Positions 20,894 through 24,509 of a stretch of 64,000 nt of DNA are shown here, piece after piece. The stretch lies in assembly GCF_001677475.2 (NCBI RefSeq), contig NZ_CP015229.1. One strand, written 5' to 3'. The notes under the pieces are model-generated. The model was not told the DNA's origin and did not search any database. It saw only the letters and a list, made by a program, of their open reading frames with translations. Source of the stretch: Escherichia coli (GTDB lineage: Bacteria; Pseudomonadota; Gammaproteobacteria; Enterobacterales; Enterobacteriaceae). A program made the translations under genes and the position numbers. How positions within the stretch are numbered: position 1 is the stretch's first letter; each line of letters begins with the position of its first letter.

Positions 20894-22358
<1,465 letters not shown>

Positions 22359-22400
22359 TGTTCCTCCTCACCCGCAACCACTCCGGGTGTTCAATAAGGC

Positions 22401-22448
22401 TATCCCTTAATTGTGCATGCTGTTGCGACTATGCACAATTAAGGGATA
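22401..22448. promoter_or_regulatory. Perfect 18-bp inverted repeat in the panE/yajQ divergent intergenic region
   Basis: tatcccttaattgtgcat (22401-22418) and its exact reverse complement atgcacaattaagggata (22431-22448) around a 12-nt spacer. Confidence 0.5.
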
Positions 22449-22525
22449 CGTCCTGGTGCAGGACTGTTGGTTATTTAACTTTGCAGGTATTATGCTTCGC
22501 ATCAAAAATGAAGGGAGAGGAAAAG

Positions 22526-23017
22526 ATGCCATCTTTCGATATTGTCTCTGAAGTTGATCTTCAGGAAGCACGTAACGCGGTCGATAACGCGAGCCGCGAA
22601 GTGGAGTCCCGTTTTGACTTCCGTAATGTTGAAGCCTCATTTGAGCTGAACGACGCCAGCAAAACCATCAAAGTGTTGAGCGAGTCCGATTTCCAGGTCA
22701 ATCAGTTGCTGGATATTCTGCGTGCCAAGCTGCTGAAGCGCGGCATTGAAGGCAGTTCGCTGGATGTACCGGAAAATATCGTTCATAGCGGTAAAACCTG
22801 GTTTGTGGAAGCGAAACTGAAACAGGGCATTGAGAGCGCGACCCAGAAGAAAATCGTCAAGATGATCAAAGACAGCAAACTGAAAGTGCAGGCGCAAATT
22901 CAGGGTGATGAGATCCGCGTAACGGGTAAATCTCGTGATGATTTGCAGGCTGTCATGGCGATGGTACGTGGTGGCGATCTCGGTCAGCCGTTCCAGTTCA
23001 AAAACTTCCGCGATTAA
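22526..23017 (+). CDS. yajQ: Nucleotide-binding protein YajQ
   Basis: ORF 22358..23017 trimmed to [21 protein letters not shown]...; 163 aa; AGGGAGAGG Shine-Dalgarno region just upstream. Confidence 0.92.
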
Positions 23018-23053
23018 TCGCGACAATGTGCGTTTTGTTCATGTCAGATGCGG

Positions 23054-23138
23054 CATGAACGCCTGATTCGGCCTACAAAGGTTTATAACTCAGGAACTTT
23101 GTAGGCCTGGTAAGCGTAGCGCAGCAGGCAATTCGCCT
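23054..23138. repeat. REP element pair between yajQ and yajR
   Basis: gatgcggcatgaacgcctgattcggcctac and tgtaggcctggtaagcgtagcgcagcaggc, REP-like palindromes; coordinates approximate. Confidence 0.6.
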
Positions 23139-23144
23139 CGTTTT

Positions 23145-24509
23145 TTATGCCTGACGAATTGCCTGTTCAACCTCAAAGCGATTCGTCACTTTGCTGTCGA
23201 TTTTCACATAAGCTGAATGTTCTTCTTCTGCAATCAACACTTCTTTGACACCCGCGGTTTCCAGCAAACGCACTTTTAACGCCTCGTTTGCGGCAATGTC
23301 CGCCGGGATTTCAATGCGTAAGCTGCTGACATACGGCGGTTCTTTCATGGTACTGGCGACTGCCAGCCACACTGCGGCCAGCATTGCGCCAGCGAGAAAT
23401 ACGCCCTGACCGTCAAACATGCCGTCAATCCAGCCGCCCAGCGAACCGCCAATCGCCACGCCAAGAAACTGGCTGGTGGAGTAAACACCCATCGACGTAC
23501 CTTTGTAACCTGCTGGCGACTCTTTACTGATAAGTGAAGGCAGAAGGGCTTCCATCAAATTAAACGCCACAAAGAAAAGCTGCACGCCGACCACCAGTTG
23601 CCAGAACTGCGTTTGTGCGTTCCACAACACAATTTCCGCAACCACGATCAACCCGACGCAGAAGACAAAGACTTGCTTCATTTTGCGCTTAACTTCAGCG
23701 TAGATAATGAAAGGCACGACCGAGCCAAAGGCGATTAACATCGTTGCCAGGTAGACCTTCCAGTGTTCAGCCGCCGGAAATCCCGCATCAGCCAGTTGCC
23801 CTGGCAGGGCAACAAACGTCGACATCAGCAAAATATGCAGACACATAATGCCAAAGTTGAGTTTCAGCAGCCGCGGTTCCGCCAGCACTTTACTGAAACT
23901 GCCTTTCACCATCCCGGATTCACGATTAAGTACGTGAGTGCTACTGTTGGGCACAACCCAAATGGTCAACGCAATGCCGGTTGTTGCCAGAATAGCGATC
24001 ATCCAGAACAGCGCGTGCAGCCCAAGTTTGTGAGTGATGATCGGGCCAAGCACCATCGCAATGGCAAAGGTAATGCCAAAGCTCACGCCGATAAACGCCA
24101 TCGCTTTGGTGCGGTTTTGTTCGCGCGTGAGATCGGAAAGCAGCGCCATAACGGCAGCGGCAATCGCACCGGAGCCTTGTAGCGCCCGGCCCAGAATAAC
24201 TCCCCAAATGGAGTCAGAAAGCGCAGCGATAACGCTACCGGCGGCAAACACCGCCAGCCCACCGACAATTAATGGTTTGCGACCAATGCGGTCGGAAAGC
24301 AGACCAAACGGAATCTGAAAAACGGCCTGCGTCAGACCATAAATACCAATGGCAATACCGATTAATGCTTCGCTGGCACCTTGCAGAGCCATGCCGTACG
24401 TGGTCAGAACCGGCAGAACCATAAACATGCCCAGCATGCGCAACGAGAATACGGTCCCTAAACCCCAGGTCGCGCGCCTCTCACCTGGCGTCATTTTATA
24501 ATCGTTCAT
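23145..24509 (-). CDS. yajR: MFS transporter YajR
   Basis: ORF 23145..24707 trimmed to MNDYKMTPGERRATWGLGTVF...; 454 aa, multiple hydrophobic helices. Confidence 0.92.
   Translation of the reverse strand: MNDYKMTPGERRATWGLGTVFSLRMLGMFMVLPVLTTYGMALQGASEALIGIAIGIYGLTQAVFQIPFGLLSDRIGRKPLIVGGLAVFAAGSVIAALSDSIWGVILGRALQGSGAIAAAVMALLSDLTREQNRTKAMAFIGVSFGITFAIAMVLGPIITHKLGLHALFWMIAILATTGIALTIWVVPNSSTHVLNRESGMVKGSFSKVLAEPRLLKLNFGIMCLHILLMSTFVALPGQLADAGFPAAEHWKVYLATMLIAFGSVVPFIIYAEVKRKMKQVFVFCVGLIVVAEIVLWNAQTQFWQLVVGVQLFFVAFNLMEALLPSLISKESPAGYKGTSMGVYSTSQFLGVAIGGSLGGWIDGMFDGQGVFLAGAMLAAVWLAVASTMKEPPYVSSLRIEIPADIAANEALKVRLLETAGVKEVLIAEEEHSAYVKIDSKVTNRFEVEQAIRQA

Follow-up and report, generated by a model that had tools for sequence, protein, structure and literature searches.

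In this study, we analyzed the spacer between the divergent genes panE and yajQ within a 64,000-nt stretch of Escherichia coli DNA (hereafter the window) and found that the 18-bp perfect inverted repeat located there probably has two uses, one as DNA, in the form of mirror-image promoters, and one as RNA, in the form of an RNase III hairpin in a long yajQ transcript. At the DNA level, the repeat would be the core of two fully overlapping mirror-image sigma-70 promoters, where RNA polymerase could sit on the same ~45 bp either way round and initiate either yajQ P2 at 22446 on the plus strand or panE-yajL at 22403 on the minus strand. At the RNA level, the hairpin would exist solely in the long yajQ transcript that starts at 22259 and reads through the palindrome; RNase III would cut its 18-bp stem, and the cut would remove the leader that is antisense to panE and leave a stabler yajQ mRNA. 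Published experiments have established the dependence on RNase III, cleavage in vitro, a changed yajQ half-life and three 5'-triphosphate start sites. The main role, that of an RNase III site in the yajQ leader, is already published, and the element itself is not new. What our analysis adds is the resolution of a strand ambiguity, the mirror-image promoter elements and starts in the arms, and the confinement of the perfect form to Escherichia among the genomes sampled.

The 18-bp repeat is real, non-random and far above chance. Its arms are complementary at 18 of 18 positions and enclose 12 nt (Table 1), just as the original prediction described them, and the distances it gave (about 45 bp to panE and about 80 bp to yajQ) are close to the measured 42 nt to the ATG of panE (minus strand, 21447-22358, start at 22358) and 77 nt to the ATG of yajQ (plus strand, 22526-23017), in a spacer of 167 nt. 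No perfect inverted repeat in the window is longer; the runner-up, TGAAATGCCGGAT-acaag-ATCCGGCATTTCA at 9032-9062, has arms of 13 bp, which was also the maximum arm length in 60 Markov-simulated windows. The fold energy of the hairpin alone is about -27 kcal/mol on either strand (quoted as -26.9 kcal/mol), and folds in contexts of 150-160 nt gave z-scores of -3.7 and -3.9. The stem comprises 18 perfect pairs, or 21 if it is extended with one bulged C, and thus has the approximately two helical turns (~20-22 bp) of an RNase III substrate. A scan against Rfam 15 returned chance-level matches only (E = 3 and 9.3), none of them reaching the gathering score. Window positions equal those of MG1655 (NC_000913.3) minus 422157, and U00096.2 positions equal those of NC_000913.3 minus 776, a relation checked with the yajQ coordinates of Kim et al. 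(2012) and the current annotation.

Table 1. Features of the panE-yajQ spacer and its surroundings, in window positions.
Feature	Position	Strand	Source or remark
Left arm of the inverted repeat, TATCCCTTAATTGTGCAT	22401..22418	.	
Spacer of the repeat, gctgttgcgact, 12 nt; RNA hairpin loop, also part of the 17-bp spacers of both promoters	22419..22430	.	
Right arm of the inverted repeat, ATGCACAATTAAGGGATA	22431..22448	.	
Distal yajQ promoter -10, TACAAT, within the panE coding sequence	22247..22252	+	Kim et al. 2012, Table S1; scan
Distal yajQ start, inside panE	22259	+	Cappable-seq score 35.9; Kim et al. 2012, 29 reads
yajQ leader from the distal start, 267 nt	22259..22525	+	Start 443640 in two data sets
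yajQ P2 -35-like, TTGTGC	22411..22416	+	Relaxed sigma-70 scan
yajQ P2 -10-like, CACAAT	22434..22439	+	Relaxed scan; mapped start 7 nt downstream
yajQ P2 start (A), 3 nt inside the outer end of the right arm	22446	+	Cappable-seq, U00096.2 443827, score 43.2
yajQ P1 (proximal) -10, TATTAT, conserved across Enterobacteriaceae	22488..22493	+	Alignment
yajQ P1 start	22501	+	Cappable-seq 443882, score 63.7; SMRT-Cappable-seq 444657 forward
panE-yajL -35-like, TTGTGC	22433..22438	-	Relaxed scan
panE-yajL -10-like, CACAAT	22410..22415	-	Relaxed scan
panE-yajL operon start	22403	-	SMRT-Cappable-seq, b0425|b0424 at 444560 reverse
Strongest RNase III-dependent read depletion (MG1655 444573), left arm	22416	probably +	PMC5371410
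Small hairpin, GTCCTG-gtg-CAGGAC	22450..22464	+	1 nt past the large hairpin; +5 to +19 of the P2 transcript
Small hairpin in the panE leader, CACCCG, 9 nt, CGGGTG	22369..22389	-	Alignment; just upstream of the Shine-Dalgarno

All three start sites near the repeat are already contained in public tables. On the plus strand, from which the Cappable-seq starts used here were taken, SMRT-Cappable-seq also gives b0426 at 444602 forward, 1 below the equivalent of 22446, a coordinate that looks 0-based, and directed 5' RACE located the P1 start at -25 with the -10 element GGTATTAT. On the minus strand, 444560 reverse is the only start that SMRT-Cappable-seq gives for panE-yajL and rests on this one data set, whose reverse-strand frame was validated on the yajR start (445911 + 776 = 446687) and the MG1655 annotation. 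Reflected about the dyad, 22403 falls exactly on 22446; the two starts are 43 bp apart, and both are set 3 nt in from the outer end of their arm.

The arms also hold the elements expected upstream of these starts. Both strands read TTGTGC, 17 bp, CACAAT, with the -10 of each promoter coinciding with the -35 of the other. On both strands the arrangement has A2 and T6 in the -10, TTG in the -35 and a spacer within 16-18 bp, the features used to test for sigma-70 promoters; the consensus match is weak (3/6 plus 4/6, that is 7/12) and falls short of a stricter promoter scan. The 5'-triphosphate starts at 22446 on the plus strand and 22403 on the minus strand each lie exactly 7 nt past CACAAT. The relaxed consensus scan, which was run prior to inspection of the minus-strand start data, predicted starts at 22259, 22446 and 22500 on the plus strand and at 22403 on the minus strand; its first three plus-strand predictions match the three major Cappable-seq starts in the scanned interval, and for the minus strand it yielded just two candidates in the spacer ahead of panE, the mirror promoter among them. 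Symmetric processing on both strands could in principle also give mirror-image 5' ends, but both start-mapping methods select 5'-triphosphate ends, the enrichment score of 3.9 is like that of the RACE-confirmed P1 (4.05), and no upstream minus-strand promoter was predicted in the scan or mapped by SMRT-Cappable-seq. We infer, with good support, that the arms are the promoter elements of the two mirror starts. Mirror-image promoter elements and mirror-image starts at this site were not found stated in the searchable literature.

The RNA side of the element was reported by Gordon, Cameron and Pfleger (mBio 2017, PMC5371410), who listed an RNase III site at 444573 as 'Intergenic (panE-yajQ)'. Their coordinates refer to NC_000913.3, because 444573 falls in the panE-yajQ spacer in that version only. 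At this position, 96 reads were counted in the rnc mutant against 2-3 in the wild type (their Table 1), a 30-50 fold read loss; in-vitro transcripts of both strands were cut by RNase III, with the cuts mapped by 5' RACE, and none of the new RNase III sites of that study showed a perfect consensus match (PMC5371410). The half-life of yajQ was ~6 min in the wild type and ~3 min in the rnc mutant, that is, cleavage made the yajQ mRNA stabler, and panE stability was unaltered in the mutant, yajQ being the only one of the two to change (PMC5371410). The RNA-seq data were unstranded, and the strand cut in vivo was therefore not assignable in that study (PMC5371410).

The mapped starts supply the strand. 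The hairpin stem is transcribed in vivo as one plus-strand RNA, from the start at 22259 recorded in two published data sets, and the 267-nt distal leader is the sole mapped transcript with the whole hairpin; SMRT-Cappable-seq mapped no minus-strand transcript spanning it. The panE-yajL mRNA and the yajQ P1 and P2 mRNAs lack the hairpin, which is thus absent from most mRNA of both panE and yajQ. Since the hairpin is carried only by the distal yajQ-strand RNA, the strand question of the 2017 study is resolved, and the RNase III substrate in vivo would be plus-strand RNA only. It also follows that panE stability is unaffected in the rnc mutant because panE mRNA starts inside an arm and comes without the hairpin. 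The distal start is missing from the full-length SMRT list, as is expected if the distal RNA is cut. The distal leader runs antisense to both the panE leader and the initial 100 nt of panE itself, and the overlap of the distal yajQ transcript (from 22259) with panE mRNA (from 22403) amounts to 145 nt. The original prediction had offered a structured 5' leader as one of its options, and this option is borne out by the presence of the hairpin in the long yajQ leader and its cleavage by RNase III (PMC5371410). The same prediction named no regulator for the site; a trans-acting factor has in fact been assigned to it, although this factor is a ribonuclease and not a transcription factor.

Just downstream, the small hairpin at 22450-22464 could be the protective 5' stem-loop that Gordon et al. 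postulated (PMC5371410). It is followed by TGTTGGTTAT, and hairpin and tail together (22450-22474, plus strand) look terminator-like in the scan; MG1655, which has C at 22468, carries fewer T in this tail. An anti-Shine-Dalgarno function was considered as well, in which CCCTT of the left arm could pair with the yajQ ribosome-binding site AAGGGAGAGG. We dropped it: the pairing is unused in the minimum-energy fold of the long leader, the left arm is missing from the P1 and P2 mRNAs, and RNase III strips it from the long form.

Comparison across Enterobacterales demonstrated that panE and yajQ stay neighbouring and divergent throughout the order, while the perfect repeat was seen in E. coli and E. 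albertii alone. In a set of 80 YajQ loci taken from named genomes, E. albertii was the one species with an inverted repeat of at least 8 bp at this position. A homologous segment of 49 nt occupies the same place in six sequences, namely four named Citrobacter genomes of the C. freundii group and two similar contigs, and is absent from Salmonella, Enterobacter, Leclercia, Lelliottia, Kluyvera, Kosakonia and others. Escherichia (167 nt) and the C. freundii group (174 nt) have longer spacers than Salmonella (125 nt) and most other genera sampled (121-144 nt). In genera without the segment, the panE promoter and yajQ P1 adjoin back to back, their -35 regions overlapping, and the ancestral panE -10 element (AGTATAGCG; TATACT or TATAAT) is present in other genera and destroyed in E. 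coli, where it now reads GGTGCAGGA and forms the small hairpin at 22450-22464. Citrobacter retains the ancestral panE -10 (TATACT) upstream of the segment, and judging from this arrangement its imperfect hairpin probably sits in the panE leader. We infer that the segment is a lineage-specific insertion that took over from the ancestral panE promoter in Escherichia. The distal yajQ -10 TACAAT is likewise restricted to E. coli and E. albertii, with TGCAAT or TGCAGT in most other genera; the difference is synonymous in panE, changing a cysteine codon from TGC to TGT on the panE strand. In one enterobacterial contig (310-445), a putative ERIC/IRU-like element of ~130 nt lies inside the conserved AGTATAGCG motif, and a second contig has it in part. 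This insertion lies a few bases from the Escherichia/Citrobacter palindrome site, in a spacer of 302 nt, and small palindromic insertions seem to favour this junction.

Pairing is retained to different degrees on the two strands. The Citrobacter-type segment can form 12-14 of the 18 pairs as plus-strand RNA and 15-16 of the 18 as minus-strand RNA, the latter being better because most mismatches are C.A on the plus strand and G.U on the minus strand; over all sequences, 75.4% of the cells are paired on the plus strand and 87.3% on the minus strand. Relative to Citrobacter, 4-5 of the 18 positions are different in each arm of the E. coli repeat, and still the two arms show perfect Watson-Crick complementarity. 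Either selection acted on the pairing, or template switching copied one arm onto the other, repeatedly or recently. Four pairs change on both sides (plus strand), a value reached by 21 of 500 shuffles, and in this sample of 7 distinct, closely related sequences the covariation is a suggestive but weak sign of RNA structure. The spacers of E. coli and E. albertii are identical at all 48 hairpin positions and differ at 5 of the remaining 119, a contrast that is not significant (P = 0.13), whereas the divergence at third codon positions is 29% for panE and 13% for yajQ. As judged from these alignments, the whole spacer is constrained and the hairpin not demonstrably more so.

Within E. coli, the repeat is present once in 5424 of 5426 complete genomes, and the 58-nt stretch around the hairpin is at least 99% identical in 5351 complete genomes. 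The repeat count returned two places per genome, which are the two strands of one palindrome, and with one locus per genome a dispersed repeat (REP/BIME, ERIC or MITE) was rejected. The hairpin is the same in MG1655 and the window; compared with MG1655 (NC_000913.3), the window spacer has two differences, at 22468 and 22485, both outside the hairpin. With T at 22468, the -35 region of P1 reads TTGGTT in place of TCGGTT and matches a -35 element better; the window allele is present in at least half of the sampled E. coli genomes. In the clinical isolate 13TMH22 (NZ_CP019256.1, 476726-477012), an IS1203 element of the IS3 family is inserted in the left arm; the match to the window begins at 22407, the outer part of the palindrome is lost, and the element parts panE from its mapped promoter.

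Several other explanations of the repeat were weighed against the dual use. It is unlikely that the element matters only as an RNase III hairpin, with the starts at 22403 and 22446 being incidental weak initiation or processing ends. Cleavage is the only function that has been tested directly, the promoter match of 7/12 is poor, and a promoter needs arms of only ~7 bp, so that the full 18-bp perfect pairing is unexplained by promoter function and suits a double-stranded RNA substrate better. However, the 5'-triphosphate-selective signal at 22446 is substantial (score 43 versus 64 for P1), panE-yajL has no start in the data other than 444560, the loss of the ancestral -10 means that panE in E. 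coli needs another promoter, and the scan holds no better-scoring minus-strand candidate. That the perfect symmetry is a mutational by-product, arising from a palindromic insertion or a quasi-palindrome corrected by template switching, with promoter and cleavage both unselected, appears quite improbable. The segment is indeed lineage-specific, as the lengthened spacers of Escherichia and the C. freundii group indicate, an ERIC-like element was inserted at the same spot in other taxa, and the 18 Watson-Crick pairs include no G.U, as DNA-templated conversion would give, when selection on RNA would allow wobble; the preservation of complementarity despite the divergence of both arms from Citrobacter points the same way. 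Against it, the hairpin is invariant between E. coli and E. albertii at a time when third codon positions have diverged by 13-29%, it is nearly invariant in 5424 E. coli genomes, and the palindrome now provides the only mapped panE start; an origin by insertion or conversion is moreover compatible with a present function. A more elaborate history that includes such an origin is possible but doubtful as a whole: a palindrome inserted where the panE promoter meets the leader may now act as a self-symmetric promoter cassette that, in Escherichia, replaced a decayed ancestral panE promoter, added a second yajQ promoter and couples panE-yajL with yajQ through mutually exclusive polymerase binding, with RNase III separating the antisense leader from the yajQ mRNA and the symmetry being kept by hairpin-templated conversion or by joint selection on DNA and RNA.

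A role as the operator of a dimeric transcription factor, NtrC or another protein, acting on panE and/or yajQ is very improbable. The perfect dyad overlaps both promoters, an in-vitro NtrC gSELEX peak (41% intensity; U00096.2 443846, window 22465) lies ~40 bp from the hairpin centre, and NtrC-like half-sites occur at 22411-17 (TTGTGCA), 22432-38 (TGCACAA) and 22454-60 (TGGTGCA). These three are wrongly spaced for one dimer, however, and the 17-bp NtrC box TGCACCAnnnTGGTGCA is absent from 22359-22525 even with up to 3 mismatches. The original prediction, which raised a dimeric operator, had itself named poor conservation of the arms outside close relatives as evidence against it and suggested the check across Enterobacteriaceae; this check, when run, showed degenerate arms in the C. 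freundii group and none in Salmonella, Enterobacter or the other genera sampled, although panE and yajQ stay adjacent and divergent there, and the arms are thus unconserved beyond Escherichia. The searchable literature held no ChIP report and no other regulator for the spacer, the NtrC gSELEX study being the sole paper besides Gordon et al. found to mention it. A weak in-vitro interaction with NtrC is possible, and a dedicated operator is not supported. An intrinsic terminator or attenuator, for example one that halts the distal yajQ transcript ahead of yajQ, is scarcely credible. The hairpin is strong, and the small GC-rich hairpin with its T-rich tail follows directly and is flagged by the terminator scan; nevertheless, the 18-bp stem is AT-rich, unflagged by that scan and without a U-tract right after it, the tail beginning CGTCC, and both flanking genes point away from the repeat, in agreement with the original prediction, which had argued against a terminator. 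In addition, reads cross the site in the rnc mutant, and the dependence of yajQ stability on cleavage means that the transcript runs into yajQ.

The two proposed uses of the repeat recall several known systems. As in the RNase III leader hairpins of pnp, rnc and adhE, and of ahpC, pflB and yajQ itself (PMC5371410), a long near-perfect stem lies in a 5' UTR, and RNase III-dependent read depletion in vivo, in-vitro cleavage and a half-life change were observed for the site (PMC5371410). Unlike in these leaders, cleavage at panE-yajQ stabilises the downstream mRNA instead of destabilising it, only a minority isoform, from the distal promoter, has the hairpin, and the same DNA is also a promoter. 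The overlapping divergent, symmetric promoters described by Warman and Grainger resemble the repeat in that DNA symmetry lets polymerase bind both ways and gives divergent transcripts, and here too the two binding events at the palindrome should exclude each other. Members of that class share one -10 and start 7-25 bp apart, most often 18 bp, whereas the palindrome has starts 43 bp apart and separate -10 elements and therefore falls outside the class. The distal yajQ RNA, antisense to the 5' end of panE, is also reminiscent of excludon-type overlapping divergent transcripts, a class reported by Lybecker et al. (2014), and RNase III acts in this region. The difference is that each single panE-yajQ transcript was cleaved alone in vitro, so that an intermolecular duplex is not required. 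Finally, a palindromic, lineage-specific spacer segment at a place where other taxa carry an ERIC-like insertion is similar to ERIC/IRU and REP/BIME insertions, but the panE-yajQ palindrome is single-copy in E. coli. It has no apparent resemblance to the ERIC or REP consensus.

If the dual use is true, a single compact sequence would act in DNA as a promoter for both directions and in RNA as a site of processing, and an inserted palindrome would here have replaced a promoter. Such a result would have annotation value and modest general interest, and would open no long-standing question.

Other structured elements lie close to the repeat. The small hairpin in the panE leader is conserved across Enterobacteriaceae, with CACCTG, 9 nt, CAGGTG in most genera, a compensatory change from T:A to C:G in E. 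coli and E. albertii, and a G.U pair (minus strand) in Enterobacter cloacae; on the evidence of this alignment it may be a translational or stability element. Between the convergent genes yajQ and yajR, at 23040-23165, there is a REP-like sequence, gatgcggcatgaacgcctgattcggcctac, and the interval contains two 11-bp perfect inverted repeats, at 23070-23107 and 23125-23165. The REP-like sequence is probably the REP40a that one paper assigns to yajQ.
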